DNA of 64,000 bases from a virus (IMGVR_UViG_3300027710_001079:64833-128832); one strand, 5' to 3'; positions 5,332 through 61,907 are shown, counted from the stretch's first letter. Numbers and translations: made by a program. The notes: generated by a model from the sequence alone, not told the origin.

Positions 5332-5335
5332 TTCT

Positions 5336-6259
5336 TTATTGTATTCTAGCTAATTTAATTATAGTTGCTGCCAGATTAATCTCTGGATCTGCAATAATAG
5401 TGTGGTCGACTAGTCCTTGTTTAATAATAAGGATGGCAGCATCTTTAGTATCTTCGTCAGTGCTAAACAAATCTAAGTTATCGTAAAGCCATCTAAAGAT
5501 CTCATCAATCTCTTCAGGCCTTGCTTTACTACATACTAGTGTCCTTGCTTCTTTGAACTTTTTCTTTTTAAAGAGATCAACCATATCAATCTTCCAATCC
5601 GATGTAGTGGAAGTTTCTGATGTTGGCTTAACCAATTGTCCGCCTTGCACATGCTGTTGTACAGTATTAATACATTTACGCAAGTCTGGATAAGTGGCTT
5701 TGACAAAAGTATCAAGATCGTCTAACTCAAATTCGATATTCTCTTCTACCAGGATGACCGCAACTCGTCCGGTGAACTCAGTTTGATCAACTCTGTCGAT
5801 GTGGAATCCTTGACATCTACTGTGGATAGCAGGGATAATACGAGCAGGATAATTGCAAGTAAGTATGAAACGAGCGGTCGAAGCAAACTGCTCCATGACT
5901 CCACGGAGGGCAGCTTGTGCATTAGGTGTAAGATAATCTGCTTCATCAAGTAATACAACTTTAAAAGGTCCAAAAGGAATCATCGAAACAAAGTTTGTAA
6001 TTTTGTCTCGAACATCTTCAACTGAGTTAGTACGACTAGCGTTGATCTCTAACACATCAAATTCTTCAATGCCTAACTCATTGATTAATAGTTTAGCCAT
6101 TGTGGTCTTGCCAATGCCAGCAGTACCACTGAGTAATAGATGAGGGATACTTTTGTCTTTAATCCAAGTATTGACCTGCCGGCGTTGTTGTGCATCTTTG
6201 AATACATAACCGTCAACAGTTTTCGGCCTATATTTTTCTACCCAGAGTTCTTTGCTCAT
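5336..6259 (-). CDS. Sliding-clamp loader AAA+ subunit (RFC / T4 gp44-like)
   Basis: LWVEKYRP, GTAGIGKTT, EINAS, LDEAD and SRC motifs. Confidence 0.95.
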   Translation of the reverse strand: MSKELWVEKYRPKTVDGYVFKDAQQRRQVNTWIKDKSIPHLLLSGTAGIGKTTMAKLLINELGIEEFDVLEINASRTNSVEDVRDKITNFVSMIPFGPFKVVLLDEADYLTPNAQAALRGVMEQFASTARFILTCNYPARIIPAIHSRCQGFHIDRVDQTEFTGRVAVILVEENIEFELDDLDTFVKATYPDLRKCINTVQQHVQGGQLVKPTSETSTTSDWKIDMVDLFKKKKFKEARTLVCSKARPEEIDEIFRWLYDNLDLFSTDEDTKDAAILIIKQGLVDHTIIADPEINLAATIIKLARIQ

Positions 6260-6666
6260 GATTTCAATGTTTCCATAGTGATAATTTTGTCAATTTCTTT
6301 GCCGAAGTCTGCATCGTTATTAATAACATAGAGACCGTTTGAACTGCGATCTGTCTTTTTATCATAGCGGCGTGTCTCTATAACTCTACCACCGTTGGCA
6401 TTATAAACAGTAAACTGAATTGCACGTTCTGGCTGATCAATACTTGGAGGACCTACACTTATTAAGGAACCGGATAGTCGATTTATTTTATTTGCCGATT
6501 CACGTTCTTGATTCTGACGTTTCTCATCTTCCCATACTTCGCGACTTATTTTTGCAAACCAGCGTTTAATAAACCCTGGTCGCTTAACTTTCTTTTTTTG
6601 TATTGCAGATTCAATTCTGTAGTCTACAGTTGACTCTTCTGCCGCGTATACTTGACCGTAACTCAT
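6256..6666 (-). CDS. Hypothetical protein
   Basis: 136-aa ORF with 4-nt overlaps to both neighbours. Confidence 0.75.
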   Translation of the reverse strand: MSYGQVYAAEESTVDYRIESAIQKKKVKRPGFIKRWFAKISREVWEDEKRQNQERESANKINRLSGSLISVGPPSIDQPERAIQFTVYNANGGRVIETRRYDKKTDRSSNGLYVINNDADFGKEIDKIITMETLKS

Positions 6667-7103
6667 TTGTATTCCTTATCTAAATTTACACTGGTTAGTC
6701 CAGCAATGATTTGGAAGTTATCCCACGCTTTCTTAGCGACTGGATTTGACTCCAGTTCACTACTTGGCAGAACTGCTTCTAGCCAAATTTCAGGACGGCG
6801 TGTAGGATGAGCTCCAAACTTACGGGGCTGATGGAACTTGCCGGATTCCCACAGCTCAATGGACACACTGCGAAACTGATCTTCATCAGTGTAGCCTGCC
6901 CATTCTGGGGCACTGCGACTGAATCCGCTAAATGAACTCATGTTCGGACCGCCACCGCCGTAACCATTCCAAATGCCTTGCCACTGGGCGTCATCATGCG
7001 GATCAAAATCAGTACGAGCAATAATGATTAAGACATCGTCAATGTCCACAACACCATCTACAATATCGCGAACGCATCGGCTATAACTCAGACCAATTTT
7101 CAT
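6663..7103 (-). CDS. Hypothetical protein
   Basis: 146-aa ORF in operon. Confidence 0.75.
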   Translation of the reverse strand: MKIGLSYSRCVRDIVDGVVDIDDVLIIIARTDFDPHDDAQWQGIWNGYGGGGPNMSSFSGFSRSAPEWAGYTDEDQFRSVSIELWESGKFHQPRKFGAHPTRRPEIWLEAVLPSSELESNPVAKKAWDNFQIIAGLTSVNLDKEYK

Positions 7104-15133: not shown

Positions 15134-18025
15134 TTATCCTATGTAAGCTACAGACCAGTTATCGTTAGCATCAAACGACAATGTTCCTACCGTTACTACT
15201 ACTTTCATTGTGTCGCCTGCTGCTAACTTAGCAATGGTACTAACACCTGCATGGTTCATTGTTGTATTGGCTCCAAATTCTAACATACATAAAGCTGTAG
15301 AACTATTTTTATAAACGATAGCCTGACTGATAGTGCTTGACGAGTTACTGCTTGTTCGCATAACTAAATGAGTTGAATATAATCCAGCAACTGGTGCTGT
15401 GAATATACCAGTCGATGTATTCAATGAGGTTCCTTGTTGATAATCTACAGTAAAGATAGTATTAGTTAATGTAGTTACAGAATTAATGGGTCCTCCAGTA
15501 CCTTCAACACGGAACGCTGGTCTTGTTGGCATAACAACATTGCCACCAACATGTAAGTTGCCGCCGATACCTGCACCGCCTACTACCTGCAATGCTCCGC
15601 TATTTGTTGAAGTTGCACTGGTTGTATTTGTAATAGTAAAGATACTGGTTAACGGATTTGCAATAGCACCAGTTGCACCAGCAGGACCGGTCGCACCTGT
15701 TAATCCAGTAAATCCTCTTGCACCAGTTAATGTAATAACCCAGTTTGAAAAAGTTCCTACTCCGGATACGCTATATGGCGTAATTGCTATATTTGTTCCA
15801 GTATACCAATTTATATATGCATCTGCACCAAATGCAAGGTTATCTAATGCAAGTAATCTAACTCTAGAATTAGGACCATATGCTGTTTGAGTATTTGCTA
15901 AATTTACAGTGAATACCATTGTAGTTGAAGTAAATGCCACACTGCTCGTTGATACTAAGCTAGCAAACCCTAAACCAGTAGCACCAAATTGTCCAGTGGC
16001 ACCTGTTGATCCCCACAATCCAGTAGCACCTGTTGATCCGTGTATTCCAGTTGCACCTGTTGACCCAAAAGATCCAGTTGCACCTGTTGCACCTGGGCCA
16101 GTTGCACCTGTTGCTCCTTCCAATCCGGTTGCACCTGTTGATCCTCTAGAACCTACTGCACCAGTTGACCCTTGTAAGCCGGAAGCACCTGTTGATCCAG
16201 AAGACCCCTGGAATCCAGTTGCCCCTGTTCCGCCGCTACCAGTAGCACCAGTTCCACCTTGAATACCTGTAGCACCTGTAGCACCCGACGAGCCTTGAAA
16301 TCCAATTGGTCCTGTAGCACCTGTAGCACCTGTAGTTCCAGTTAATCCTGTAGCACCTGTAGCACCAAACCCTGTTGCTCCGTTTGGTCCAATTTCTCCA
16401 GTAGCACCTTGTGCTCCAGTAGCACCAGTAGCACCACTTCCAGTAGCACCTGCAGGACCGGTAGCACCAGTAGCACCAGTAGCACCAGTACCGCCTTGAG
16501 CACCTGTAGCACCAAACCCTGTTGCTCCAGTAGCACCTTGAGCACCAGTTGCACCGATATTTCCCTCAGTTCCCTGCGGTCCTGTTGATCCTGTGCTGCC
16601 TTGCAGACCAGTAGCACCTGTTGATCCAATTTCACCTTGAGCACCTGTTGCTCCTTGGCCCGCAAATGTTCCAGGAATTCCTTGAACACCAGTAGCACCT
16701 TGGAGACCGGTAGATCCAGTAGATCCTTGAGGTCCAGTCGAACCTGTACTGCCTTGTAATCCTGTAGCACCAGTTGCACCTGTAGAACCGGTAGAACCAA
16801 TTTGTCCAGTAGCACCCGTAGCACCTGCACCAGTAGCCCCTTGCGGCCCTGTAGCACCAGTAGAACCAGTAGAACCAATTTGTCCAGTAGCACCCGTAGC
16901 ACCTGCACCAGTTGCTCCTTGAGCACCAGTAGCACCTGTTGATCCAATATCACCTTGAGCACCAGTAGCACCTGCACCAGTTGCTCCTTGAGGTCCAGTT
17001 GCACCTGTTGATCCCTGTCTTCCGGAAATTGTAAATGTCCAGTTTGAATATGTACCGGAGCCAGTGAACGCAGTTACATTAAGAGATAATGTGTTTCCGG
17101 TCAAGGTATTGATAAAGCCACCGAGACCAAAAGTTCCATCAACTCCTACTGGTGTTATCTTTACAGAACTACCTACTGTAAATGCAGTTTCAGTTGAAAG
17201 TTTATTAAGAACAAATGTTTTAATGCCTGCACTAATTTCATGAGTTGAAGTAGAAGTTAATCCTTCGTATCCAGCTCCGGAATCTCCTGCAGGTCCAGTT
17301 GCACCTGTTGCACCGTCAACTCCTGGTAATCCGCTTGCCCCAGTAGACCCCATAAAGGCCGCAGTACCTGGAATACCCTGAGCACCTGTAGCACCTGTTA
17401 AACCAGTTGCACCTGGGCCGCCGGTAAATCCTGTAGCACCGGTTGCACCTTGATATCCAGTTGCACCCGAAGCACCAGCCGCACCAGTTGATCCTGTTTC
17501 TCCAACTGATCCTCCTGGGCTTGCTGACACCCAAACCGTTCCATTGTAAGTAAACAGTTGACCTGTTTCTTGAGTGTCAAGCCACATATCTCCAGCAGCA
17601 GCCACTAACGGTCTTGATGTTGAAATTACCGCAGTTAACCTAGGTCCAGTTGCACCAGTTGATCCTCTAGTGCCAGTTGCACCACGAGCACCTGTTGCAC
17701 CCATTGAAACTACATTGACTACACCTTCAACGATTTCTAAGCCGTTGCCTACTATAATTGTTCCTAGAGTAGAAGTAGTTGCAGTAGTAGCTACAGTTGT
17801 TACATTTAAAAATCCTTCTTGGTCAACATTTAAGCCATCGCCAATTTTAATCCCACCAATAGTGCTGGTAGTTGCAGTTGACACATTAAATGTGACTAGT
17901 TCATTATTAATGAATTCGCCTAACTGTCCTACAGTCATTTGTTTTGTTAGGTTGCCATCAGCAACAGGCATACTAGTTGCCGTTGTTATTGAACCAATAA
18001 CAGGTAGATTACTAATGGTACTCAT
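15134..18025 (-). CDS. Collagen-like fibre protein 2 with a C1q/TNF-like C-terminal domain
   Basis: Long GATGAT collagen tract; C-terminal PAFRV...[12 protein letters not shown]...LAAGDT pattern. Confidence 0.85.
16791..16912. repeat. Exact 44-nt direct repeat with a 78-nt period inside collagen gene 2
   Basis: gtagaaccaatttgtccagtagcacccgtagcacctgcaccagt at 16791-16834 and 16869-16912. Confidence 0.9.
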
Positions 18026-20562
18026 TTAACTAAACACTCCACAATGCCTGATCCGCTTTCTAACGCAAATGCAAATGGCTGTCGACCATTGCTTTCTGTG
18101 CTGCCTTTGCCATCCATGTACGGCCAAATAGGTTCTCCTTTTAACACGTATCCTTCTACCTTAACTGGTACACGCCCAGTTAAAGCAATGTATGTACCGC
18201 CTTCTAATTCGCTGTTCATCATGTATGCAGGCTTGCCGGACACTACGCCAATAACATAACAGTCGCTAGTAGTTATTGCAGTAACTTCTGCAACACCGCC
18301 TATCATCATAACTGTACCAACTGAGTATTCCTGGTCTGCTAGATACTTTTCTGCCAAGTCAGCATATACTGCAACAGTAGCAGTTCCTCTAAAGAATGAT
18401 CCTCTAATATCGCCCAAGTCATCTCTTGCAACAATTGTGGCAGTAATATTATCTTCATATCCTTTTGCAAAATAACTAAACCCGCCTACATACGGTACAA
18501 TTTCTAAAGCTGCTGCCTGTGCATTACTCGCACCAGTAGCACCAGTTAAACCATCAGCACCAGTAGCACCTTGAGCCCCAGTAGCACCAGTTGATCCTTG
18601 AGCACCAGTTGCACCTGTAGCACCATCAAATCCAGCCGGTCCGGTAGAGCCCGACAACCCGGTAGCACCCGAACTACCAGTAAGTCCAATAGGTCCTTCT
18701 GGTCCTGTAGCCCCCATAGCTCCGGTTGCACCTGTAGAACCGATTGGACCAGTTGCACCATCTGGGCCAGTTGCACCGGTTGATCCCATTACACCTTCTG
18801 CTCCAGTAGCACCAGTTGAACCTGATGGGCCAGTAGCACCAGTTATAGGACCAACGCTGATTACAGAAGCATCGTTTAGTGTAAATTCAATTATGGTATT
18901 GCTAGAAGTTAGAGTAGCAGTAGTAATATATTTTCCAGCAGGACCAGTAGCACCAGTTGCTCCAGAAGCTCCTTGGTTGCCCTGTGTTCCAACTGCTCCG
19001 GTAGCTCCTGCAGGACCAGTTGCACCTGTAGCACCAGTAGTTCCTGGTATGCTAGGTCCTTCTGCTCCGGTAGCACCTGCAGGGCCTGTTGCACCTGTAG
19101 CACCAGTAGCACCTGTAGTACCTAATGGACCGGTAGCACCTGTGCTGCCCTGCAACCCTGTAGCACCTGTAGCACCAGTTGCTCCGATGGCACCTGTGGC
19201 ACCTGTAGCACCTTGGCCAGTAGCACCTGTAGCACCTGGCTCGCCTTGGTTACCAGTTGCACCTGTTGATCCTGTAGCACCAATACCAGTTGCACCCGTT
19301 GCACCTAACTCTCCCTGAATACCAGTTGCACCCGTTGCACCGTCTCCGCCAATTGGCCCAGTTGAGCCAGTAGCACCGTCTGGACCAGTTGCACCTTCAG
19401 CACCGGTAGCACCTGTAGCACCTAATCCAGTTGATCCTTGCGGCCCAGTTGCACCAGTTGCTCCTCGAAGGCCTGTTGCACCAGTTGCACCGAAGTTACC
19501 TGTAGCACCTGTTGATCCTAACGGACCAGTAGCACCTGTTGTGCCTAAGTCACCAGTTGGTCCTTGAATACCTGTAGCACCAGTAGCACCAAAATTTCCA
19601 GTTGCACCAGTACCACCGACTGATCCAGTTGCACCCGGACTGCCGATACCAGTTGAACCAGTTGATCCTTGTCCTGTAGCACCTGTGGCCCCAGCACCGC
19701 CAAATGGTGCACCTGCACTCCAGTTACCATCTCCGTTTTGTTTGATATATAACGTGCCAGTACCTAGTTCTAAGAATGCAAAACCGAACGGCCTATCATC
19801 ATACTGACTTCTTTCATCATACGGAGTTGGCCAATATCCTACAGCATCAATAACAAACGGTTGTCCAATCTCACCAGTAGCACCTGTAGATCCTTCACCA
19901 GTAGCACCTGTAGCACCAATAGGACCAGTTGAACCAGTGCCACCTTGTCCTGCAAATGTTCCAGCAATACCAGTTGCACCTTGTAGGCCAGTAGCACCGG
20001 TTGATCCTTGAGCACCAGTTGCACCAGTACCGCCTTGTCCGGGAATACCTTGCGGCCCAGTTGAACCAGTGCCACCTTGGAATGCTGCTACTCCGGGAAT
20101 TCCTTGGAGTCCTGTTGCACCTTGCTCGCCAGTTGCACCTTGGGCACCTGTAGAACCAGTAGCACCGCTGCCTGTAGCACCTTGACTACCTGTAGCACCT
20201 GCACTGCCAGCAGGACCTTGAGATCCAGTAGCACCAGTAGCACCCATAAACGCAGCAGTGCCCGGAATACCTTGCGGCCCGGTTGCACCAGTTCCTCCTG
20301 GATATCCTATATCACCTTTTGGACCTGTAGACCCAGTTGAACCGTCTTGACCTGTTGCACCAGTTGATCCGCTGCCCGTAGCACCTCGTAATCCAATTGG
20401 TCCAGTAGCACCGCTTGCACCTACCGCGGTCTCTCTACTAAAAAATGTTCCTAATGTTTCTACAGTTGTATAGTATGTTTGTCTGGTAGAAGTATCTGCT
20501 ACTGGTATCAGAACAGCATTGGTTAGTGTGTTTAACGGTGGTAAATTACTTATTGTGCTCAT
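18022..20562 (-). CDS. Collagen-like fibre protein 3 with a peptidase-G2/chaperone-like C-terminal domain
   Basis: G-X-T repeats; C-terminal ADLAEKY...[11 protein letters not shown]. Confidence 0.85.
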
Positions 20563-50752: not shown

Positions 50753-51448
50753 TTAAGAATTCTTTTTTATTAAGTTAATTAGTTCGGGTGCTGACAAACT
50801 GTCAAAGTCCAGGCCTATGTTCATTCGAATACCAGTGCTGAACTTATGTACACTATGCCATTCTAAATGATTAAACACATACCAATATCCTGGCTCTATT
50901 TGAGCACTGACCACATGTTCGATTTTATCTAAATCTGGTATTCTAGTAGTGTGAATAATTTCAAATGGTTCTTTTTCTCTGTACCATCTAGTCTCTTCTC
51001 CGTTACCTTCGAGTAGCATAAACAAAGAACTTTTTCGTTTATGGCCTTTATGTGGCGGTAGGATTTCTCCTCCGTGACTAATTTGAAATATAGGAACTGG
51101 CTCGCCGGGAGTGGGCTCTTTTAAAAACTCCGGAGTTAGTGAAAGGAATTCGGAAGTATCTTGTTCTGTAAGAAAATATTGAGTAAAGTTAATAACGTTA
51201 CTTTCTGTAAAGTATTCCTTGATTTGCCGTCCTCGGCGAATCAATTCTTTTGAATCTCGACTGCCTATTAAATTAAATGTAGCTCTCGGATTGTTTCTAG
51301 GGTCGTCATAGTTGTTTCTAAAAACAAGGTTATCAGTACTTGTCTTAACACGACCTAGCAGACTTTGACAAAAATCATCTGCAAATTTTAAATTTGTTTT
51401 GTATATGTATTTGTCGGCATCAACATCCGATATTATAGTTTTAATCAT
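50753..51448 (-). CDS. Cupin/2OG-oxygenase-like protein
   Basis: ILPPHKGH...WYVFNHLEWHSV...R double-stranded beta-helix pattern. Confidence 0.6.
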   Translation of the reverse strand: MIKTIISDVDADKYIYKTNLKFADDFCQSLLGRVKTSTDNLVFRNNYDDPRNNPRATFNLIGSRDSKELIRRGRQIKEYFTESNVINFTQYFLTEQDTSEFLSLTPEFLKEPTPGEPVPIFQISHGGEILPPHKGHKRKSSLFMLLEGNGEETRWYREKEPFEIIHTTRIPDLDKIEHVVSAQIEPGYWYVFNHLEWHSVHKFSTGIRMNIGLDFDSLSAPELINLIKKNS

Positions 51449-51462
51449 ACTTTACTAAAATT

Positions 51463-51563
51463 TGGTACGGTCGGTAGGCTTCGAACCTACAAGGGCAGTG
51501 TCTAGGACTGTGCCCGGTCCCCGCAGTGAACTTTGGGAGCTTTTCCAATTTGCTCACGACCGC
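51463..51563 (-). ncRNA. Atypical 101-nt tRNA-like RNA (class II/Leu-like scaffold, TCA at the anticodon position)
   Basis: GCGGTCG/CGACCGT acceptor + ACCA; D arm AGC-AAATTGGAAAA-GCT; T arm GTAGG-TTCGAAG-CCTAC; poorly paired anticodon arm; extra-long variable arm. Confidence 0.75.
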
Positions 51564-51565
51564 AA

Positions 51566-52360
51566 TTAATTATAACTTATTTTCTTCTCCGACGCAAGTC
51601 CTAGAAACATCAAAGTTTGGATAACATATCGACCTGGATCAAACTGCCACCATTCTTTTCCAATCTGCCAACTACCCGGAGCAGAGTGATGGTTATAGTG
51701 CCAGCCTTCACCGAATGTTAAGTACGACCACCACCAAACATTATGTGATTGATCTCGATAGTCAGTTGCAACCCGTGTTCCGAACATTGGGCTATGATCA
51801 ATCCAATTACTCAATCTAGAAGCCATTGTGTTAAAAAATACAGGGATAATGTAGAGAAATACTGCAATCATTGGATCAATTGCCACTAACACTGCTACTA
51901 CTAGTAAGACTATTAGCATATAGTACTCGTGCATAAATCTATGAACAGGGTCGTTTATAATATCTTTTACAGACCATTTGTTAAATTTTCCACCGTAGTC
52001 ACCAACGAACGCACCTATTGGGCCTAGTACTACTGGGCTGTGCGGATCACCGGGTTTGTCTGCAAATTTATGATGTGCTCTATGTACAAATACCCATCCC
52101 ACTGAGCTACCAGTACAGCCTAAATTTCCAAAGAAGCTAAACAAATATTCTAAGGGTTTCCAAAGTTGATACGATTTATGTGTCAACAATCTATGAAAAG
52201 TAACTGTAATACCGAGACAGGTAATTAAAAAATATCCAACTAAAGAAAGTAGCCAGTAGTTCCAACTAATAGGAGTTACTATTGCCCACACAAAAATACC
52301 AGCAGCGGCTAACTGCATTGCAATAAAAAACCACTCTCGTGGATAAAAATACTGTTTCAT
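51566..52360 (-). CDS. Membrane fatty-acid desaturase 1 (delta-9/DesC-like)
   Basis: His boxes HRLLTH, HRAHH and WHYNHH; start corrected to MKQYF. Confidence 0.9.
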   Translation of the reverse strand: MKQYFYPREWFFIAMQLAAAGIFVWAIVTPISWNYWLLSLVGYFLITCLGITVTFHRLLTHKSYQLWKPLEYLFSFFGNLGCTGSSVGWVFVHRAHHKFADKPGDPHSPVVLGPIGAFVGDYGGKFNKWSVKDIINDPVHRFMHEYYMLIVLLVVAVLVAIDPMIAVFLYIIPVFFNTMASRLSNWIDHSPMFGTRVATDYRDQSHNVWWWSYLTFGEGWHYNHHSAPGSWQIGKEWWQFDPGRYVIQTLMFLGLASEKKISYN

Positions 52361-53115
52361 TTTTTTACAATCCTTATCACGTAAGATATTAAATCTACTT
52401 CCCACCAATGTTCTTGCAAGTTCCATTTACTGGGATTTGTATGATGGTTATTGTGCCATCCTTCGCCCCATAGTAAAATTGCAAAAGGCCATAAATTTTT
52501 ACTTTCATCACGGTGCTGGTGGTTAGTATAACCGTGACTGTGTCCAAAATATGTAAAGCTGTTTAATGCAAGATGAGTCATTGCAAGTGGCACAGCCCAT
52601 GCAAAATAAAATAGCCAAGGACTTATTAAAAATAACAACCCTGCCCACCCTATTACTAAAATCTTATAATATTTGTTAATCCATAGATGATGGTAGGTAA
52701 AGAGATCTCTAATTAGATATCTTTTTAATTCTCCACCATAATTTAAAATGTGTGGGAAAAACACTCTCCAACCGTTGATATTAGGTGCATGAGGATCTTT
52801 TTCAGTATCGCTGTACGCATGATGTTCTCGATGAATGTGAACCCATCCTAAAATGCTTCCTCTACCTGCCTGGATAGCAAACCAACTGAACAGCCATTCT
52901 AATATAGGATATTTGAATTGAAAACTTTTATGGGTCCAATATCTATGCATCATCATGCTGACCCCTACTCCTGCATACAAAAAGTACCCAAGTAAGATAG
53001 TCAATGCTTCGGTAACTCCTATGTCGAAAATCCAAAAGCCGGCTACAGCAATCAATAGACTGATGATCTGTAAAAAGGATACGAATCCCGAGCTTGCTGC
53101 AAAGATATTTTTCAT
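52357..53115 (-). CDS. Membrane fatty-acid desaturase 2
   Basis: His boxes HRYWTH, HREHH and WHNNHH. Confidence 0.9.
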   Translation of the reverse strand: MKNIFAASSGFVSFLQIISLLIAVAGFWIFDIGVTEALTILLGYFLYAGVGVSMMMHRYWTHKSFQFKYPILEWLFSWFAIQAGRGSILGWVHIHREHHAYSDTEKDPHAPNINGWRVFFPHILNYGGELKRYLIRDLFTYHHLWINKYYKILVIGWAGLLFLISPWLFYFAWAVPLAMTHLALNSFTYFGHSHGYTNHQHRDESKNLWPFAILLWGEGWHNNHHTNPSKWNLQEHWWEVDLISYVIRIVKK

Positions 53116-53193
53116 ACCTATATTTATTAGGAGTTTTTTCCAAGAAAAAATTTAGCAGTTATATACCTACTAAATAAAATTTTAAAAGGATTC

Positions 53194-54561
53194 ATGATGG
53201 AAATTATCACAGCCTCTCTGCTTTTTATGCTGACAATGTTTGGTGTATTAATGTATGCAGGAAGAAATTGGAGTTCGAGCAATATGAGTTTTTTGTTTGC
53301 CAATAGATCGTTAAATTACATTCCCGCTGGCCTTGCAATCAACGCTCATTGGTTTTGGGCTATTGCATTATTTGTAGGACCAACAGTGGCGTATAATTGG
53401 GGCTGGATAGGTTTATTATGGTTTGCTATTCCTAATGCATTGAGTTTATTAGTAATGGCATTTATTGGGTCCAGGATACGTAACAACTACACAGACGGAT
53501 TTAGTTTAAGCGAGTACATCCAAGAAAATTTTAGTCCAAGACTTGCAAAATTATTTCAGTTAAAATTTGCATTAATTTCATTTGCAGGATTGTTATTGTC
53601 CTTTACCGCTATTGGCAAGCTATGGGCATTCTTAGGACTGGCAGCGTTTGTAGATCCTGTTTATGCAACACTGGTTGTGGGGCTTATTACATTAGGATTT
53701 ACTCTGCGTGGCGGTATAAGAAGTAGCATTTTTAGCGGTGCAACTATGACCCTCTTGTGGATTCTATTTTTTGGAGTCTCGGCATTCAGTGTGTTTACTT
53801 CAGATGTTTCGATTCTCGTAACAGGAAAGAATGCACTGGAAACTATTTGGAATGAAAAGTTTTTAACTAATTTTGCATTGGCATTTTTAGTTGCTATCGG
53901 CGTGGGTGCTACTAGTCACGGAATGATGTGGCAAAAGACATTCTCAATGCCTAAAGAAAATATTTGGCCTAGTTTTATAATTGCTTCAATAATATTTGTT
54001 CTAATGGTACTATCATTAGGAAGTTTATCACTATTCACATTTGCTTCCGGAACAGCAGTAAGTCATCCTGAATTATCTGCATTAGCTGGAATAGCAACAC
54101 TGTTTGGGGCAAGCGGCCTACTTGTATTTTCTATTCTGTTAATAGGTCAAACGTCTACTATCATGGATTCTGCAATCACCTACATGGCCAGTCTAAGTTC
54201 ACGAGAATGGGTAAAGAAGGACGATCCTAAGGTCAGTAAAATTGCTATGATTCTGTTTATAACTGCGGCATGGATTGTTTCATTTTTAAAGTTAGAAATC
54301 TGGACCATCTTTATGTTGATGGGAGCTATTAGAATAGTGATGTTTGCTACAATTTCTACTCATGCGTTAGGTTTAAAGATTTCAGAAGCAGCAAGTTTTT
54401 ATAGTTCTATAGTAGCAATTATTGGTGCAATTTATCTTTCTTATACTGCAAGAATTGATAAGCTCCCAATATATGATATGTATTCTGCATATTTTGCTAT
54501 CGGCTTACCTTTGTTAGCAATAGTCGGAAGCCACTTCTTTAACAAATTTAAAAGGCATTAA
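53194..54561 (+). CDS. Sodium:solute symporter (SSS family)
   Basis: About 12-13 TM helices; FLFANRSL, AHWFWA and GGIRSSI patterns; TAAATA at 53171-53176. Confidence 0.75.
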   Translation: MMEIITASLLFMLTMFGVLMYAGRNWSSSNMSFLFANRSLNYIPAGLAINAHWFWAIALFVGPTVAYNWGWIGLLWFAIPNALSLLVMAFIGSRIRNNYTDGFSLSEYIQENFSPRLAKLFQLKFALISFAGLLLSFTAIGKLWAFLGLAAFVDPVYATLVVGLITLGFTLRGGIRSSIFSGATMTLLWILFFGVSAFSVFTSDVSILVTGKNALETIWNEKFLTNFALAFLVAIGVGATSHGMMWQKTFSMPKENIWPSFIIASIIFVLMVLSLGSLSLFTFASGTAVSHPELSALAGIATLFGASGLLVFSILLIGQTSTIMDSAITYMASLSSREWVKKDDPKVSKIAMILFITAAWIVSFLKLEIWTIFMLMGAIRIVMFATISTHALGLKISEAASFYSSIVAIIGAIYLSYTARIDKLPIYDMYSAYFAIGLPLLAIVGSHFFNKFKRH

Positions 54562-55779
54562 ATGTTATCATCGAGATCTAATGTTGGATATTACAAAACC
54601 GGCAACAAATTATTCACTGAAAAAATTGAAGCAGTTATCGAGGCGAACAAAACTAAGGCCGATGTAGAGTGGGAATTCAATAATGATATCTGGGATGCAG
54701 TAGACTGGACTGTTGAGCCTACACTAAGTTTAAATGAACTGTATAAACTTCGTGCTCAACAAATTCGCGACAAGTATGATTATCTTGTTTTATTTTCTAG
54801 CGGCGGTTCTGATAGCAGGAACATGGCTTATGCATTTTTAAAAAACGGAATTCATCTTGATGAGATTGTTGCAGGTTCTCCGGCGTCGGGCTTAAACAAT
54901 TGGAACAATGATTTAACCTCTCATAATCCTGAAAATACTATTACTGAAACCGTTGTTGCACAGATGCCTTTCATGCACGAAATATCAGTTAACTATCCTA
55001 ATGTAAAGTTAACAAATCATGATTATTTCATCGATATGGTTAATTATAAACCGGATGAGTGGATTAGAAAATGCGGCAATTATATACACCCGACATATGC
55101 AGCTAGATATAATCTAGAAAGATATTCTCATCTTAAAAAAATATTAGACTCTGGAAAGACAATTGGTTTTATATACGGAATAGACAAGCCCTTTATTACT
55201 ATTCATAAGGGCATGGTATGGTCGTTAATATACGATTACGGAGTCAGCAATGCGTTCCAGTCAATTGACCATCCGCTCGCAGATGTTGAATTATTTTATT
55301 GGTCGCACGAGTTGCCTGAAATAGTAATTAAACAGAGCCATGTAGTTACCAAGGCTGCTCATGTTCCAGAAAACGTGCATAGTATAATGGATACTATTCA
55401 TAATGATTCTAGAGAGAACTATAAAGAAATTTATAGTAAACACTCCGCTAGATATCAACGTGCAATCATTCCTTACATTTACCCCATGCTTGAAGAATTT
55501 CCCTGGCAGTGTGCTAAACCTGCATTAGTGTTTATGGGAGAACACGATGCTTGGTTTGATAAATTGCACAAAGGAACAATAGTTCATCAAAAAATAATGT
55601 CAGACTATGATCGATTTATTAAAAGTATTGATCCTAAATACTTTAGAACAAGGCAACAAAATTGGGATATTGAAGTAGACGAACATTCTCATTTAGATCC
55701 TAACTATGTTATCGGCTTTAAACCCTGCATGTTAAAAAAGAAAATTGGTCCAGTTTCTAATTTCCTACCAAAGTTATGA
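54562..55779 (+). CDS. PP-loop (adenine nucleotide alpha-hydrolase-like) protein
   Basis: YDYLVLFSSGGSDS (SGGxDS) ATP-pyrophosphatase motif. Confidence 0.65.
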   Translation: MLSSRSNVGYYKTGNKLFTEKIEAVIEANKTKADVEWEFNNDIWDAVDWTVEPTLSLNELYKLRAQQIRDKYDYLVLFSSGGSDSRNMAYAFLKNGIHLDEIVAGSPASGLNNWNNDLTSHNPENTITETVVAQMPFMHEISVNYPNVKLTNHDYFIDMVNYKPDEWIRKCGNYIHPTYAARYNLERYSHLKKILDSGKTIGFIYGIDKPFITIHKGMVWSLIYDYGVSNAFQSIDHPLADVELFYWSHELPEIVIKQSHVVTKAAHVPENVHSIMDTIHNDSRENYKEIYSKHSARYQRAIIPYIYPMLEEFPWQCAKPALVFMGEHDAWFDKLHKGTIVHQKIMSDYDRFIKSIDPKYFRTRQQNWDIEVDEHSHLDPNYVIGFKPCMLKKKIGPVSNFLPKL

Positions 55780-57023
55780 ACATAGCTATATTTGGAAGCA
55801 ATCACTGTTTACATTTTTTCTCTCAGTATCTGGAAAAATATGAAAACGTTAATAATGTCTATCACTATTCTGCAGGACCCCTACATGTACCTACTGAAAA
55901 ATATCATCCTATAATTTTTAAAGAAACTTTAGAAGAATATTTAAATGAAGTTGATACGTTAAAAGAAAAAGAAATAGATTTAATCATACCGTTAACACTG
56001 CCTTTCCAATTATGGTCTAAGTTTCAAAATAAGATTAGAAGTACAGGAATCTCGGTATTGTCGCCAACTTCAGATCTTGCGATGTTAGAATGGTCTAAAA
56101 TTTACGGTAAAAAGTTTATGCAGTCAATTGGTGTACCGACTGCTAAACATAAGACATTGTTGTATGACGAGGTTATAGATAATTTTTTTACAATAGAACG
56201 TCCCTTTGTTTTAAAATTTGATCAGGATTTTAGATTTGGCAGACAGTCGATAGTTGTTACAGAAAATAACTTAAATGAAGTTTATACAAACTTTTTGGAT
56301 ACTGGTAAAACAAGGATGTCTGATCTGCTTAAAAAAGGTGATCATACTGATTACATAATAGAAGAATTTTTAGCAGGCCCTGAATATTCTTTGCATATTT
56401 TATGTAACGGAACTAATTGGTCATACTTAGGATCTTCAAGAGACTACAAAAAAGAGTTTAACAGTGACACTGGAAATAATGTGTGTAGCATGGGATGCTA
56501 TTCTGTAACTGATCCTATAAATGATCAAGCTGTTCAAATTGTTAACCAAGTACTAACAGCACTGGAAAATAACGGCACTCCTTATGTAGGGGTTTTATAT
56601 CTGGGAATGATAATACATAACGGAGTACACAAAGTACTAGAGATTAATACTCGCCCAGGTAATCCAGAATTTAATACGATATTGTCTATGATAGACGATA
56701 ACATAGTAGAATTATTTTTTAATTGCGTCAATAACAATGTAAAAAAATCTATTAGATTTAAATCAGGCAGTGCTGTTACTATACAACTGGTCCATAAAGA
56801 TTACATTTTAGAATATCGAGAAAACGTAAAATATCCTATATTGAAAGACATCCCACCTGACATAATTGTTAGTTACGGATCATTAGACCCGCACCTTCGA
56901 TATTGTAATCTTACTGCTACAGGAGAAACACCTCAGCTAGCTTCTGAAAAAATATCAGATTATTTAGATAAACAATATTTGGGCGATTTTAGATACAGGA
57001 CAGATATAGGTATTTTACCTTAA
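55776..57023 (+). CDS. Diverged PurD/GARS-like ATP-grasp ligase
   Basis: LEWSKIYGKKFM, IIEEFLAGPEYS, DTGNNVCSMGCYS, LEINTRPGNPE and YRTDIG follow the PurD layout. Confidence 0.8.
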   Translation: MNIAIFGSNHCLHFFSQYLEKYENVNNVYHYSAGPLHVPTEKYHPIIFKETLEEYLNEVDTLKEKEIDLIIPLTLPFQLWSKFQNKIRSTGISVLSPTSDLAMLEWSKIYGKKFMQSIGVPTAKHKTLLYDEVIDNFFTIERPFVLKFDQDFRFGRQSIVVTENNLNEVYTNFLDTGKTRMSDLLKKGDHTDYIIEEFLAGPEYSLHILCNGTNWSYLGSSRDYKKEFNSDTGNNVCSMGCYSVTDPINDQAVQIVNQVLTALENNGTPYVGVLYLGMIIHNGVHKVLEINTRPGNPEFNTILSMIDDNIVELFFNCVNNNVKKSIRFKSGSAVTIQLVHKDYILEYRENVKYPILKDIPPDIIVSYGSLDPHLRYCNLTATGETPQLASEKISDYLDKQYLGDFRYRTDIGILP

Positions 57024-58481
57024 AAGAGTTTCAAGATATTTCATTATTCTTGTAACTATTCTTGATCGTATTTCTTCTGAATATGTATTATTAGTTGAAG
57101 TTATAATTTTTCTTATTTCCGGCCAGGTGTAGTCAAGCCCTGCAAGTCCCACAGTATCGCCCCATCTCATAGTTGGTTTTTTGTTCTTTGATTCTAGATA
57201 AGAAATACTGTTCTTTGATATTTCAATAGCGTCAGAGTATGTCAATCCCATATTGTTAATCCAACCTTGCTCGTTAGTTGAGTAACCGTACTTTGTAGGG
57301 TTTTTCATAAACTCACTACTCCATGCAAAATTTTTAATAGTTGGATCTAAAAATAATGGATTTATATTTGCAGCATCTAGTTTGAATGCATCGCTACCTA
57401 CTATTTCAATCCATTCTTCTGCTGACTTTTTATCTTCGTAGGGTAGTCCTATCATAAAATTACCAATTGTAAAGACATCATCACCCCATATGTCTTTACA
57501 TTGTTGAAGAGTATCTATTATTTTTTCTCTAGAAAGTCCTTTTCCGATTGCTTTATTTCCTCGATCGTTTAGGCTTTCAACTCCAAATAATGCAACTTTT
57601 AATCCACTTTCTTTTAATAATGAGATTGTCTTTGGGTGTGCATGTAATAAATCTAACCTCAAATAAGTTACAAAATTAATTTTAAAAGGTAATTTTGAAT
57701 ACACATTATCATATAGTATTTCTAATTTTTCAACACTATCATTGTGTGTATCGTCTAAGTAGACGTAATTTGTTGTACGATATCTTTCGTAATTTTTTAA
57801 AAATTGATTTTTTAATATTTCAGTTTCTTTTAAGTAGTCTAATTTCTTTTTACCGTTTAACGGAAATGAACAAAAATTACACCTAAATATACAACCTCTA
57901 GATATTTCTATCGGCAATCCTTCTCGGTAATCAATAGCATCTGACTGGTGCCACGAAAATTTATCTGTACTAAAATTAAATGTAGACGCTGTAATATCGT
58001 CATTAACAATAACACACCCATCTTCTACTGTATATTTAAAAAATGGATTTTTATCCTCGCACCATTTAGTAAAATTAATAACTGATGTATCGGCATATCC
58101 TTCTATATAAGTATCAAACAACTCTCCGCTGTCTCTTTTAAATGCTTTTGCACCGCCAGATACAAACCGGCATTTAGATTTTTTTGAAGAAACTAAATTT
58201 TTAATTTTCTCAGTTTGTTCTTTTGTAAACAGTGTTTGGGAAGAAGCCATTGCAGGAGTAAGGAATGTAGTTGAAAATCCAATCCAAATTGTTCCTTCAT
58301 CAACATGCCGATCTAATATACTTAAAAATTTGTCAAACCCGATTTTTAAAATTTGAGGGAAATATTCAACAACTTGAACTGTGTAACCATTGTTCCTTAA
58401 TTGGTTTGCAATTTGATATGCTCCAATTGATCTAAAAGGGATTGAAAAACCCACGCCAGTGAAAATTATAATTTGTGCCAT
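57015..58481 (-). CDS. Cobalamin-binding-type (class B) radical SAM enzyme
   Basis: B12-binding-like N-terminus (IGAYQIA, IGFST, SGG); SRGCIFRCNFC, LDDT, FGVES and MIGLPYE. Confidence 0.85.
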   Translation of the reverse strand: MAQIIIFTGVGFSIPFRSIGAYQIANQLRNNGYTVQVVEYFPQILKIGFDKFLSILDRHVDEGTIWIGFSTTFLTPAMASSQTLFTKEQTEKIKNLVSSKKSKCRFVSGGAKAFKRDSGELFDTYIEGYADTSVINFTKWCEDKNPFFKYTVEDGCVIVNDDITASTFNFSTDKFSWHQSDAIDYREGLPIEISRGCIFRCNFCSFPLNGKKKLDYLKETEILKNQFLKNYERYRTTNYVYLDDTHNDSVEKLEILYDNVYSKLPFKINFVTYLRLDLLHAHPKTISLLKESGLKVALFGVESLNDRGNKAIGKGLSREKIIDTLQQCKDIWGDDVFTIGNFMIGLPYEDKKSAEEWIEIVGSDAFKLDAANINPLFLDPTIKNFAWSSEFMKNPTKYGYSTNEQGWINNMGLTYSDAIEISKNSISYLESKNKKPTMRWGDTVGLAGLDYTWPEIRKIITSTNNTYSEEIRSRIVTRIMKYLETLLR

Positions 58482-58486
58482 CGTCC

Positions 58487-58498
58487 TATTTATAAATA
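58487..58498. promoter_or_regulatory. Palindromic back-to-back late promoter TATTTATAAATA
   Basis: A TATAAATA octamer on each strand, 5-6 nt from the two divergent ATGs. Confidence 0.7.
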
Positions 58499-58504
58499 TG
58501 GGTT

Positions 58505-59401
58505 ATGCAGCCTATTAATTTTTATTACGAACTATCGCCAGAACAAAATCATTTTCCTGTTATATATGTTGATATTACTCATCGATGTAACATGGAGTGT
58601 GCTAATTGTTTTATTCCTAACAGAGATGTTCCAGATATGGATAAGGATAGACTTTATGATGTATTAAAACGATTACCCTTTAAAACTGAGATCAGAATGT
58701 TAGGAGGGGAACCAACTGTTCGAAAAGACATATTTGAAATCGTAGAAAAAATTAGAGAGCTAGGACACAGACCAAATATGCAGTCTAACGGTCTTATGCT
58801 TGCTAAACCAGGATATGCTAAAGACTTAGCCAAGGCAGGTATGCGTAGCATCTATATTAGTGTTAACGGTGCAGATGATAATGATGTTTACGAGACCATG
58901 GACGGAATGCGATGTGCTGAAAGAAAAATTGCAGCATGGCAAGCGTGTGTTGATGCTAAGATGAATGTTAATTTGGGGTGCATCATGCAAAAAGGCACTA
59001 ACGATCATATCCCAGCTAGACTATTTGAACTGTCAAAGACCATCGGTGGCAATCCTATTTTTAGATTTAGAAACGTTGGACAAATTGGAAGATACACATT
59101 AGAGCAAGATCAAAATTGGACATTTGAGGAAACTATAAACAATGTATGTGCAGTGTTTGGAAAAGACCCAGAATGGGCTAAGAATAGAAACACTATTGCG
59201 GGATTCACTGAGCCCAACATTATTTTCTTTCCGTTAGATGAAACTAAAAAATTAAAAACGCCTTGGGTAAAAATTACAAACTGGAGCCCCACAGATGGTA
59301 AAGTTCCTGATCCAGGCAGCAAGAGAAGAGGTCGATTAACTCAAAATTTTAAAATTGCTCCTCATTTTGAACATATCATTTTAAATGAAAATGTCTATTA
59401 A
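58505..59401 (+). CDS. Radical SAM enzyme (MoaA/PqqE-like core)
   Basis: CNMECANC, LGGEP, SNG and ISVNG. Confidence 0.9.
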   Translation: MQPINFYYELSPEQNHFPVIYVDITHRCNMECANCFIPNRDVPDMDKDRLYDVLKRLPFKTEIRMLGGEPTVRKDIFEIVEKIRELGHRPNMQSNGLMLAKPGYAKDLAKAGMRSIYISVNGADDNDVYETMDGMRCAERKIAAWQACVDAKMNVNLGCIMQKGTNDHIPARLFELSKTIGGNPIFRFRNVGQIGRYTLEQDQNWTFEETINNVCAVFGKDPEWAKNRNTIAGFTEPNIIFFPLDETKKLKTPWVKITNWSPTDGKVPDPGSKRRGRLTQNFKIAPHFEHIILNENVY

Positions 59402-60128
59402 ACCTCTTAGTACTCCGTGGAACGATTGTACAGACACCTTGTTACATTCTAAATCTCTTGACGAGTGGTACACAGATAAACCTAAATTAGGATACAATGT
59501 TTTTAAGTTGCCTAGTCAGTATTCTTTTAATCTCAAAGAAATGCAAGACCAAGTTTCTTCTCTTTTAGAAAAACAAAATACAATAAGCATTTCTAAAAAT
59601 GCCAAAGGTGAAAAATTCAATAGGTACAAGGGACTGGGATTTTTTTCTAGACCTAATTGTGCAACTCCGCTCGAGGATCATTTTACCAGAAGAGATGTTA
59701 AGCACGGTGTAACATATGCCGACGATCTGCATCTAAATGCGAATCTACCAGACTTGATAGAAAACGATTTTACAGAAACTACCTGTATAATGAACGAGTA
59801 TTTTAATAATATCTTTTCGTCTTTTAAATCAAAGATTACAAAGGCTAGCTTATTAGAATTGCGGCCTATGGGATGGTTAGGATCGCATGTTGATTTTCCT
59901 TACTATAAAACAGTAAGGTTACATACTAGCATATTTGGTAATGAGGGTGCTTGGTACGAAGTTGAAGGAGAAAAATTTCAACTACCTCAAGACGGGCATT
60001 GGTATTTTATAGATACTGGAAAGTATCATTCTGTTTGGAACCACGGACCAAACAGTAGAATCACCTTAAATGTAAATTTAGAAATTCAAAGTGATCCTAG
60101 AGAATTAGCATTACTGGGTCTTTTGTAA
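59385..60128 (+). CDS. Asp/Asn beta-hydroxylase-like Fe(II)/2OG oxygenase
   Basis: GSHVD...RLHTSI...GHWYFIDTGKYHSVWN...R. Confidence 0.75.
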   Translation: MKMSIKPLSTPWNDCTDTLLHSKSLDEWYTDKPKLGYNVFKLPSQYSFNLKEMQDQVSSLLEKQNTISISKNAKGEKFNRYKGLGFFSRPNCATPLEDHFTRRDVKHGVTYADDLHLNANLPDLIENDFTETTCIMNEYFNNIFSSFKSKITKASLLELRPMGWLGSHVDFPYYKTVRLHTSIFGNEGAWYEVEGEKFQLPQDGHWYFIDTGKYHSVWNHGPNSRITLNVNLEIQSDPRELALLGLL

Positions 60129-60353
60129 AGACTTAATGTAGTCAATAACCATCTGCACTGTTTCAATAGTTTCGGCAACCTCCTCGTCTATTTCTAATCC
60201 AAATTCATCTTCAACAGACAGTAACATTTCTACAGTATCTAAGCTGTCGCCACCTAAGTCTTCAACAAACTTCATGTTGGGCTGTATATTTTTAATATCA
60301 ATCCCTAGCTGTTTACTGATAATTTTTTTTACTTTTAGTTCTACTTCATCCAT
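60111..60353 (-). CDS. acpP: Acyl carrier protein
   Basis: DLGGDSLDTVE phosphopantetheine-attachment Ser motif; EDEFGLEI. Confidence 0.95.
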   Translation of the reverse strand: MDEVELKVKKIISKQLGIDIKNIQPNMKFVEDLGGDSLDTVEMLLSVEDEFGLEIDEEVAETIETVQMVIDYIKSLQKTQ

Positions 60354-61116
60354 GATCTTTCCTTAATGCTATTAATTTAATTAGCTGTGCTGACATATCA
60401 AATTCCCACCATTTGATTTTTTGATTCCATTGTTGTGGATTTTTATGATGGTTGTTATGCCATTCTCCAACAATGTACCCTACAAAAATATTGTTGAAAG
60501 AGCCATCGCCCGTATTGAAATTTCTATAATTTAATATTGCTTCTCGATGATTTAAAATATTAATCGATATATAAGCTAACCACAGCAACAGTACACTTAC
60601 ATTATATACAAGTGCTAACCTAAAGTCAATGAATCCAAGTATTACATAAAATAATAGAATAATTCCTAGATAGTAGTTGTGTGCTATCATTATCCATTTA
60701 TCGTTTAGAGATTCCGCAGTCCGTATCGGAATCTTTTTAAAGTTCCAATCAAACATTGCTATTTTAAAAAAACTTAGATACTTGCCGTGTGGATCTTTTT
60801 CTGTATCTGAAAATATATGATGTGCTCTGTGCGACATAGCATATGCGTAAGGTGAACCTGCACATGCCAGCGGCGATGCAATACTCATGATAACATGCCA
60901 AAATCTAGTTGTTTTAAATGAGTTATGTGAAAAATATTTGTGTAATGCAATATTATGCAGTACCTGCATAAAAGCATAAAACAACAAGGCTGAATACAGT
61001 ATAAAAGAGTATTGCCCTGTTTGGACAAAATATCCCAATGCTGCTGTGCCTAATAATACTTGTAAGATAATAGTGCGTGTTGTAGTTGCAGCACTGCCCC
61101 GAAACATTTTTTTCAT
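60346..61116 (-). CDS. Membrane fatty-acid desaturase 3
   Basis: His boxes HKYFSH, HRAHH and WHNNHH. Confidence 0.9.
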   Translation of the reverse strand: MKKMFRGSAATTTRTIILQVLLGTAALGYFVQTGQYSFILYSALLFYAFMQVLHNIALHKYFSHNSFKTTRFWHVIMSIASPLACAGSPYAYAMSHRAHHIFSDTEKDPHGKYLSFFKIAMFDWNFKKIPIRTAESLNDKWIMIAHNYYLGIILLFYVILGFIDFRLALVYNVSVLLLWLAYISINILNHREAILNYRNFNTGDGSFNNIFVGYIVGEWHNNHHKNPQQWNQKIKWWEFDMSAQLIKLIALRKDHG

Positions 61117-61907
61117 TAGCGTTTTCTAATAAGAGGAATAAACCATTTTGAAATATCAATTTCTCCTGGCTTATGTGCATAGTCATATTCCCAGGGCCGT
61201 GCGTGATGATTGTTGTGCAGGCCGAGACCTAATGTAAACCAATTGAACCAAGGAACATTTTGACTTGTGTCTCCGCAATCTGGGTAGTTTTGATAACTGC
61301 CTTTATGCGGAATATGTCCCCATGTATTAATTAGACCAGATAAATGGAACTCTATTACCGTTGCTGCACTTATAGAAAACACAGCTAGTCTCCAATCAAT
61401 TAAGGCTAGCAATAAAAAAGTACCCCAATATATAGAATAATAACGTTGATGATAAAACTTTAATACAGGATCTTTAATCATGTCTTTGACTAACCACATT
61501 TTTTTAAAATCCCATTTATGATTTAACCAAAGGAAATAACTCCACCAAAACCCTCGAGTAGGACTGTGTGGGTCTTTGTCAGTGTCAGAATATTTGTGAT
61601 GCAACCCTTGATGTAACACTCTCAACATTAACGGACTACCTGTGCCTGATAGCATTCCTAAGTATGCTCCTAGTTTAGCAATCCACGGATATGTTTCAAA
61701 ACTTTGATGGCAGTAATATTTGTGAATAAAAATTCCAAATCCGATATGTCCAAATAGGAACCATGAAGGGTAGATTAGCAATAACCACCATAGTGATGTA
61801 TCTCCTGTTCCTAAAGACATTAATCCTAGTAAGAATATAATGTGTTGTGGGATATACACTCTTCTAAAATTCTCTCCAAGTTCGTTCCAATAATTTAATA
61901 GTTTCAT
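61116..61907 (-). CDS. Membrane fatty-acid desaturase 4
   Basis: His boxes HKYYCH, HQGLHH and LHNNHH. Confidence 0.9.
   Translation of the reverse strand: MKLLNYWNELGENFRRVYIPQHIIFLLGLMSLGTGDTSLWWLLLIYPSWFLFGHIGFGIFIHKYYCHQSFETYPWIAKLGAYLGMLSGTGSPLMLRVLHQGLHHKYSDTDKDPHSPTRGFWWSYFLWLNHKWDFKKMWLVKDMIKDPVLKFYHQRYYSIYWGTFLLLALIDWRLAVFSISAATVIEFHLSGLINTWGHIPHKGSYQNYPDCGDTSQNVPWFNWFTLGLGLHNNHHARPWEYDYAHKPGEIDISKWFIPLIRKR

Follow-up and report, generated by a model that had tools for sequence, protein, structure and literature searches.

A phage operon with a symporter-like protein, a PP-loop enzyme and an altered PurD-like ligase: a candidate module for solute uptake and amide bond formation

What would a phage gain from three abutting genes that specify a symporter-like membrane protein, a PP-loop ATP pyrophosphatase and a ligase resembling the purine enzyme PurD, the glycinamide ribonucleotide (GAR) synthetase (GARS)? 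The question is raised by positions 53,194 to 57,023 of IMGVR_UViG_3300027710_001079:64833-128832, a stretch of 64,000 nucleotides (the window) that corresponds to bases 64833-128832 of a 192.8-kb IMG/VR virus record with a CheckV completeness of about 55%. The source is a large freshwater T4-like phage. A phage auxiliary gene is as a rule the copy of a host enzyme and enhances a pathway already known; of the three proteins encoded here, two come from lineages essentially confined to viruses, and the third appears to be a purine enzyme rebuilt for another substrate. A first-pass annotation had proposed an import-activate-ligate module rather than purine synthesis, a proposal that is supported at the level of sequence analysis. 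In our reading, to which we assign, taken as a whole, a probability of about one half, the three genes would form one translationally coupled phage operon for the uptake-coupled, two-step ATP-dependent formation of C-N (amide) bonds on a small metabolite, and not for purine synthesis. The features concerned are the following.

53194-54561, + strand: gene 1 (P0001, 455 aa), an SSS/SLC5-like symporter with a predicted LeuT fold, phage family phrog_20720
54562-55779, + strand: gene 2 (P0002, 405 aa), a PP-loop ATP pyrophosphatase resembling the synthetase domain of AsnB, without a glutaminase domain
55776-57023, + strand: gene 3 (P0003, 415 aa), a divergent PurD-like ATP-grasp ligase without the phosphoribosylamine (PRA)-site and B-loop motifs
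53170-53176, + strand: a CTAAATA heptamer resembling T4-type late promoters, 17 nt before the start of gene 1, as read from the sequence

The three open reading frames abut or overlap on the + strand, as had been described: the stop codon of gene 1 (TAA, 54559-54561) is followed directly by the start codon of gene 2 (ATG, 54562), giving TAAATG, and genes 2 and 3 share an ATGA overlap at 55776-55779. Contigs from four runs, each belonging to a different study, carry a colinear and near-identical operon. The single-nucleotide polymorphisms listed among these contigs, whose codon positions were assigned by hand, all fall at third codon positions (10 of 10; six in gene 1, three in gene 2 and one in gene 3), which is strong evidence that the three frames are real coding genes under purifying selection. 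About 13 studies, chiefly of lake and other freshwater metagenomes, account for the 19 public runs that contain near-identical copies of these 3.8 kb, and no RNA run is listed among them. The TAAATA reported earlier at 53171 is indeed present, as part of CTAAATA, and AGGA stands between this heptamer and the start codon of gene 1. Its role as a promoter is putative: across the window the heptamer is not enriched (10 copies observed versus 16.5 expected), and four of the 10 copies lie directly upstream of gene starts. A scan of the operon for sigma-70 promoters and terminators gave counts no better than those of shuffled sequences, and none of the three proteins matched a PADLOC defence model.

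Gene 3 bears on the question of purine synthesis. Its product follows PurD throughout and is nevertheless altered, as had been claimed: it matches TIGR00877 over residues 1-412 of 415 (E 3e-46) with 158 bits, below the curated equivalog cut-off of 288. Among Pfam domains, the A domain alone is detected (GARS_A, PF01071, 95.5 bits versus a cut-off of 27), with no match to GARS_N. The best solved relatives are all GAR synthetases, and the Mg-binding E-x-N motif and ATP-binding lysine (K147, E289, N291), which are invariant, identify the protein as belonging to the ATP-grasp superfamily.

For a comparison of motifs, the 17 closest members of the clade were aligned with nine canonical PurDs, and residue roles were taken from human and G. 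kaustophilus GARS (PMC2978367; PMC8880213). The glycine site of human GARS comprises Asp217, Arg292, Asp295 and Glu297 (PMC2978367; PMC8880213). Residues D223, R293 and E298 of gene 3 correspond to human Asp217, Arg292 and Glu297 and are invariant in the clade, as are the ATP/Mg residues K147, E289, N291, K225 and N235, of which E289 and N291 are Mg ligands; the C-terminal YRxDIG of PurD is also kept in gene 3. In GARS, Arg13 and Glu14 of the GGREHA motif form a site for sulfate and the ribose of PRA and are proposed to orient PRA, and the B-loop GLAAGKG, conserved in all GARS enzymes discussed there, contacts the ATP gamma-phosphate (PMC2978367). Asp295, the Asp of GDPE, is the proposed general base contacting the PRA amine (PMC2978367; PMC8880213). 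GGREHA is absent from 17 of 17 clade members and present in all nine canonical PurDs, gene 3 reading SNHCLH at this place, and the B-loop is replaced in gene 3 by DFRFGRQ (clade consensus D[WF]RxGxQT). These two losses go beyond the changes previously pointed out. The latter are present as well, GNNVCSMG being a relaxed form of PurD's GPNTGGMG and RPGNPE taking the place of RFGDPE; the Asp-to-Asn change in the second motif does not, however, characterize the clade, since the position equivalent to Asp295 (N296 in gene 3) is D in seven members, N in five, S in three and C in two.

The altered signature is shared by a sizeable group. A profile search of 1.84 billion representatives returned about 75 clusters with this signature at 241 bits or above; the top 75 clade representatives are all without the B-loop motif, and GGREH is missing from nearly all of them. 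In the same search, canonical PurDs with normal motifs, fused GART forms included, start at about 231 bits. When gene 3 was compared with a cultured-phage collection by tblastn, bacterial-type purD genes alone were matched, at 22-31% identity and mostly in mislabelled or contaminant records. The simplest reading of this pattern of retained and replaced residues is that the enzyme would still activate a glycine-like acid and join it to a different amine.

Gene 2 carries the SGGSDS PP-loop that had been recognized earlier, at residues 80-85, and S80, G81, G82, D84 and S85 are invariant among 30 homologues. No family match was obtained in Pfam, NCBIfam (E ≤ 0.1), PHROGs or PADLOC, the Pfam family Asn_synthase (PF00733) included, and a profile of the gene 2 family matched no chain among PDB sequences at E ≤ 10. 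The relatives number in the hundreds, are labelled hypothetical and share 35-93% identity. An AlphaFold 2 model of the protein is confident, with a mean predicted local distance difference test (pLDDT) value of 90.7. Foldseek returned weak matches to PP-loop cores alone from the PDB (E > 1e-3), so that an exhaustive structural aligner was needed. With it, the best matches were human ASNS (9b6c; Z 10.5 over 280 residues) and E. coli AsnB (1ct9; Z 10.4 over 291), followed by beta-lactam synthetase (Z 9.2), TilS/MesJ (Z 9.1 over 176 residues), TsnB9 (Z 8.4) and CarA (Z 8.0); NcsA (Z 7.7) and QueC (Z 6.1) were weaker, and matches to the PP-loop only lay at Z 7-9. Neighbours in the ESM Atlas are viral clusters first and then clusters bearing Asn_synthase. 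These model-based comparisons support the view that gene 2 encodes a PP-loop enzyme of the asparagine-synthetase type.

The glutaminase half of AsnB has no counterpart here. Gene 2 gave no match to a GATase family and shows no trace of an N-terminal nucleophile (Ntn) glutaminase domain with its catalytic cysteine; the approximately 55 residues ahead of the helix leading into the PP-loop are too short for one. The protein's three cysteines (171, 317 and 389) are conserved in none of the 30 homologues, and there is therefore no QueC-type cluster, as had been stated. A QueC or 7-deazaguanine role was rejected on the absence of this cluster, the lack of a QueC profile match and the fold score of Z 6.1; identity with NadE, GuaA or ArgG was likewise rejected (fold Z 6-7.5, no profile matches). 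A role as lasso-peptide cyclase was set aside provisionally, no precursor, B-protein or Asn_synthase match having been found.

The family is essentially virus-only. An alignment-based scan of IMG/VR viral contigs gave more than 500 matches, where a pattern scan with the single gene 2 sequence had given none, and up to three to five paralogues occur in one phage. Among 185,579 species genomes there were three matches, all on contigs of metagenome-assembled genomes, and tblastn against the cultured-phage collection yielded no match. A weak match of the PP-loop region of the gene 2 profile was also seen in the same phage beyond the window (G000:C1:135540-135680, E 2e-5); it sits inside a 325-aa frame, which probably encodes another PP-loop enzyme.

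For gene 1, no match was found in Pfam or NCBIfam at E ≤ 0.1, Pfam SSF (PF00474) included; in PHROGs it falls in phrog_20720 alone (E 7e-28), a family of unannotated function. Its homologues are metagenomic, and some are automatically named Na+/proline or urea symporters by JGI. The confident AlphaFold 2 model (pLDDT 89.5) matches the choline transporter CHT1 over its full length in Foldseek (TM-score 0.78, E 2.7e-10), and the top 24 matches are all SSS/SLC5 proteins (CHT1, SiaT, SGLT1/2, NIS, DUR3; TM-score 0.67-0.78). The earlier assignment to the SSS transporters thus finds support in the modelled fold, though not in a Pfam match: gene 1 is SSS-like by fold and not by sequence membership. 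Within the family, the motifs AIxxHWxWAIA in transmembrane helix (TM) 1 and QTSTxxDS in TM8 are near-invariant; the latter is rich in hydroxyl groups and, by analogy, suggestive of the position at which SSS proteins bind Na+.

Do the three genes belong together? In 15 of the 24 viral loci fetched with the PurD-like profile, a gene of the PP-loop family overlaps the PurD-like gene by 4 nt, upstream or downstream, and when the distinct PurD-like genes from all loci are counted, 24 of 31 abut a PP-loop gene, in either order. In a tree of 122 PP-loop proteins, the members linked to a PurD-like gene form six or more supported clades (8 changes versus a shuffled mean of 20.6), and the tree of PurD-like proteins reproduces the clades of the partner PP-loop proteins with 9 label changes (minimum 8, shuffled mean 19.6), statistics that are inflated because shared ancestry would by itself produce part of the label clustering. 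At two loci with two pairs each (L117 and L122), every ligase groups with ligases whose partner shares its PP-loop clade; the pairing is therefore old and has been kept. The first-pass annotation would have been refuted in part had the other two genes failed to co-occur with the ligase, and no refutation came from this side: besides the PP-loop gene, the transporter joins the ligase as well, in at least three arrangements: transporter, PP-loop, PurD-like in the window; PurD-like, PP-loop, transporter on the minus strand of L122; and a PP-loop gene divergent from transporter and PurD-like genes in L129/L130. It is a less constant partner than the PurD-like and PP-loop genes are to each other, and at other loci the symporter adjoins more distant PP-loop proteins with an SGGIDS motif.

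A census of the immediate same-strand neighbours of 113 distinct PP-loop genes from 78 viral loci places the family beside solute uptake. The neighbour is a TctC-type binding protein with a signal peptide in 44 cases, a PP-loop paralogue in 33, a PurD-like ligase in 13, a DctP-type binding protein in 10 and a symporter in two. No TctC gene occurs in the sequenced part of the phage record, where the symporter is present instead, and the closest relative of gene 2 on the tree (50% identity) is also symporter-linked. The presence of three unrelated kinds of solute-uptake protein beside one enzyme family is the main reason why we prefer a small imported substrate over a macromolecule.

Several related loci show further variations. 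The DctP-type protein adjoining a PP-loop gene at L020:9378-10334 starts MSQSKKIVWVIAHD and has no obvious signal peptide, so that it may be a cytoplasmic binding protein; the TctC-type neighbours have a signal peptide. In L103 and L110 (approximately 4923-7044), the PurD-like gene lacks a PP-loop neighbour and is followed by a 264-aa protein that begins with a P-loop, GLPGSGKT, and may be an alternative partner; a short-chain dehydrogenase/reductase, a TctC protein and a B12-binding radical S-adenosylmethionine (SAM) enzyme lie nearby. Further PP-loop families distinct from that of gene 2, of about 290, 309, 374 and 417 aa and with SGGIDS-type motifs, occur in related islands (L006:1526-2398, L006:6313-7566, L132:4028-4957, L133:2286-3410 and L129:8558-9436). 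They show weak matches to QueC, NadE or LarE alone, a picture of a radiation of orphan PP-loop enzymes in related phages.

A scheme that accommodates these features can be drawn from the chemistry of the families, from which all of its steps are inferred. The SSS-like symporter would import a small polar solute, probably one bearing a carboxylate, into the infected cell. The PP-loop enzyme would then adenylate a carboxylate, releasing AMP and pyrophosphate, and hand the acyl moiety on to an amine or to ammonia, in the manner of the AsnB, beta-lactam synthetase and TsnB9 synthetase domains; since gene 2 has no glutaminase domain, the nitrogen donor would be free ammonia, a different amine or the substrate. 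The PurD-like enzyme, its acyl-donor site kept and its acceptor site rebuilt, would phosphorylate a small glycine-like amino acid, with release of ADP and phosphate, and join it to an amine other than PRA. The scheme would thus combine two classes of amide-forming chemistry, via an acyl-adenylate (PP-loop) and via an acyl-phosphate (ATP-grasp), and it fixes neither the sequence of the steps nor the direction in which the transporter works. Observed in its favour are the folds and motifs, the coupling of the genes, a pair that recurs and co-diversifies, a trio that also recurs, and purifying selection.

Several points weigh against this scheme, beyond the inflation of the tree statistics mentioned above. 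Not one protein of these families has an established substrate, product or activity. In fold, gene 2 matches AsnB-type enzymes moderately well (Z about 10, root-mean-square deviation about 5 Å, 9-11% identity), and there is no match at the sequence level to Pfam Asn_synthase or any PDB chain. About 80% of the members of the PP-loop family have no PurD-like neighbour, and most loci of the symporter family in IMG/VR have no close PP-loop neighbour; the trio is thus one of several modules and not a fixed system. The record being only about 55% complete, the absence of other purine genes is weak evidence. Finally, with desaturases, an acyl carrier protein (ACP), radical SAM enzymes and oxygenases in the same island, the true substrate could be lipid-linked or macromolecular. 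The nearest of these neighbours are listed here.

57015-58481, - strand: a B12-binding class-B radical SAM enzyme (Radical_SAM Pfam match), convergent with gene 3, the two overlapping by 9 nt
58505-59401, + strand: a radical SAM/SPASM-type enzyme (298 aa; Pfam match)
58505-60128, + strand: the same radical SAM/SPASM-type enzyme (298 aa) together with an Asp/Arg-hydroxylase-like oxygenase (247 aa; Pfam matches)
within 60111-61907, - strand: an ACP (80 aa; TIGR00517 at 93 bits) after two desaturase-like genes

The island lies in the right part of the window. Collagen-like tail-fibre genes occupy the left part along with other genes of T4-like phages, and beyond about 47 kb the G+C content drops from about 0.40 to 0.32-0.35. 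This low-G+C stretch is packed with enzyme genes: two GT1 glycosyltransferases, one methyltransferase, 2-oxoglutarate (2OG)-Fe(II) oxygenases, four desaturase-like proteins, the ACP, the two radical SAM enzymes and the Asp/Arg-hydroxylase-like protein. ARAGORN found no tRNA within 51000-58000 of the window. The enzyme at 57015-58481 has weak NCBIfam matches to B12-binding radical SAM families of the PhpK, HpnJ and BzaD type. In the left part, the two large collagen-repeat tail-fibre genes (15134-20562) have a G+C content of 0.49-0.50, versus about 0.40 in their flanks. Between the divergent radical SAM genes, a gap of 23 nt (58482-58504) contains the palindrome TATTTATAAATA, so that the T4 late-promoter consensus TATAAATA can be read on either strand (- strand, 58487-58494; + strand, 58491-58498); this is a possible bidirectional late promoter.

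Of the alternatives, the one that survives best places the operon in a lipid or acyl pathway of the island, in which the ligases would couple the carboxylate of an acyl chain or lipid to an amino-acid head group, yielding an amino-lipid or an N-acyl amino acid. Many loci have desaturase-like genes (cluster c2), B12-binding radical SAM genes (cluster c10), an ACP and a ligase of the AMP-binding type at a distance of a few kilobases or less from the PurD-like/PP-loop pair, and in the window four desaturase-like genes and the ACP are close by. Moreover, L129 retains the window's neighbours at 58-69% identity: the window's radical SAM/SPASM and hydroxylase genes share 69% and 58% identity with their counterparts next to the trio in L129/L130, and the ACP-desaturase pair also stands beside the trio in L129. 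The association is, however, loose. The B12-binding radical SAM cluster directly adjoins the PurD-like gene in L004, L014, L025, L100, L103 and L110, and the junctions of these enzymes and of the desaturase-like genes with the pair are not conserved; conservation of gene overlap is limited to the junction between the PurD-like and PP-loop genes. The desaturase and ACP genes lie on other strands or transcripts at varying positions, and a symporter for polar solutes, like proteins that bind carboxylates, agrees better with water-soluble substrates. We consider such a lipid pathway unlikely.

In a second alternative, the enzymes would modify a macromolecule (tRNA, the bases of phage DNA, or a protein of the virion or host) with an amino-acyl or amide group, the transporter being incidental or supplying the donor. 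Such a role would recall the PP-loop and ATP-grasp enzymes that act in the modification of nucleic acids or peptides. The fold neighbours of gene 2 do include the tRNA-modifying TilS/MesJ as well as NcsA and QueC, and radical SAM enzymes and 2OG oxygenases are found next door. Against this, the AsnB-type alignments span 280-291 residues versus 176 for TilS, gene 2 has, outside its AsnB-like core, no domain for binding tRNA or DNA, and the commonest neighbours of the family, leaving paralogues aside, are secreted solute-binding proteins, which like the symporter point to small molecules. The presence of up to three to five PP-loop paralogues per phage, and the lack of a match to PADLOC models or known modification families, speak against it too, and we hold macromolecule modification to be distinctly improbable.

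Least probable of all, in our view, is that gene 3 is a fast-evolving phage PurD, an auxiliary purine gene with genes 1 and 2 as unrelated neighbours in a mosaic island: the full-length PurD match, the solved relatives, the retained glycine-site residues and YRxDIG and the JGI name of its relatives, phosphoribosylamine--glycine ligase, favour it, yet the score falls 130 bits short of the curated cut-off, GGREHA and the B-loop are missing clade-wide, the general-base position varies, no purM was found in the phage record (about 55% complete), and a stand-alone purine enzyme would have no reason to be coupled to, and to diversify with, a PP-loop gene.

Returning to the preferred reading of uptake followed by amide bond formation, one may extend it to a phage-encoded route independent of nonribosomal peptide synthetases (NRPSs). 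An organic acid would be imported, a glycine-like residue attached by the repurposed PurD and a carboxylate closed or amidated by the AsnB-like enzyme, with the radical SAM enzymes and oxygenases tailoring a product that acts on the infected cell or its competitors. This extension is doubtful. If it were true, the product might be an inhibitor, a signal or a cofactor analogue, and the route would be phage-made secondary metabolism from virus-only enzyme families. More generally, if the products can be identified, they would reveal what imported solutes are turned into by abundant freshwater phages in the course of infection, and the hundreds of uncharacterised viral members of the PP-loop family would gain a function; new stand-alone amide ligases may also be of use in biocatalysis. 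A caution for annotation follows as well, as pipelines call the PurD-like clade phosphoribosylamine--glycine ligase and would thereby wrongly credit phages with purine synthesis.

Literature searches on phage purD and on asparagine-synthetase-like and ATP-grasp proteins in phages, together with a pelagimyophage paper, gave nothing relevant. The superfamilies are known; in the literature searched, none of the three families was found to have a studied member, and the pairing of a rebuilt PurD and a virus-only AsnB-like enzyme with a symporter appears undescribed. Comparison with known systems is nevertheless instructive. The synthetase domains of AsnB/ASNS, beta-lactam synthetase, CarA and TsnB9 resemble gene 2 in the SGGxDS motif and in fold over about 280 residues (Z 8-10.5), from which carboxylate adenylation followed by attack of a nitrogen nucleophile would be expected by analogy. 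Unlike these enzymes, gene 2 has neither an Ntn glutaminase domain nor an Asn_synthase match, belongs to an essentially virus-only family and is paired with transport proteins or a PurD-like ligase. With PurD (TIGR00877; PDB 2xcl, 2yw2, 1gso and 2qk4), gene 3 shares the full-length N-B-A-C ATP-grasp architecture; it differs in lacking GGREHA and the B-loop, in its relaxed GPNTGGMG and variable GDPE aspartate, and in not standing beside purine genes.

The closest parallel to the two ligases together may be found in NRPS-independent amide pathways, namely the E-64 pathway, with an Fe/2OG oxygenase, an ATP-grasp enzyme and an amide bond synthetase, and the dapdiamide enzymes DdaG and DdaF (PMC12568646). 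As in the operon, stand-alone acyl-phosphate and acyl-adenylate ligases there occur in one cluster (PMC12568646); the 2OG oxygenases near the operon and an organic acid as the likely starter add to the likeness. In contrast, the adenylating enzymes of those pathways are of the ANL type and not PP-loop enzymes, and the pathways belong to fungal or bacterial cellular secondary metabolism and not to phages. Gene 1, for its part, shares the LeuT fold and the hydroxyl-rich TM8 motif with SSS/SLC5 transporters (CHT1, SiaT, vSGLT/SGLT, NIS and DUR3); unlike them, it is phage-borne and has no Pfam SSF match, and its Na+ coupling is putative. Phage-encoded uptake is itself familiar from PstS of cyanophages, a solute-binding protein carried as an auxiliary uptake gene. 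Like PstS, gene 1 would be an uptake component supplied by the phage for the infected cell; unlike PstS, it is an uptake protein translationally coupled to the enzymes that would convert the solute.

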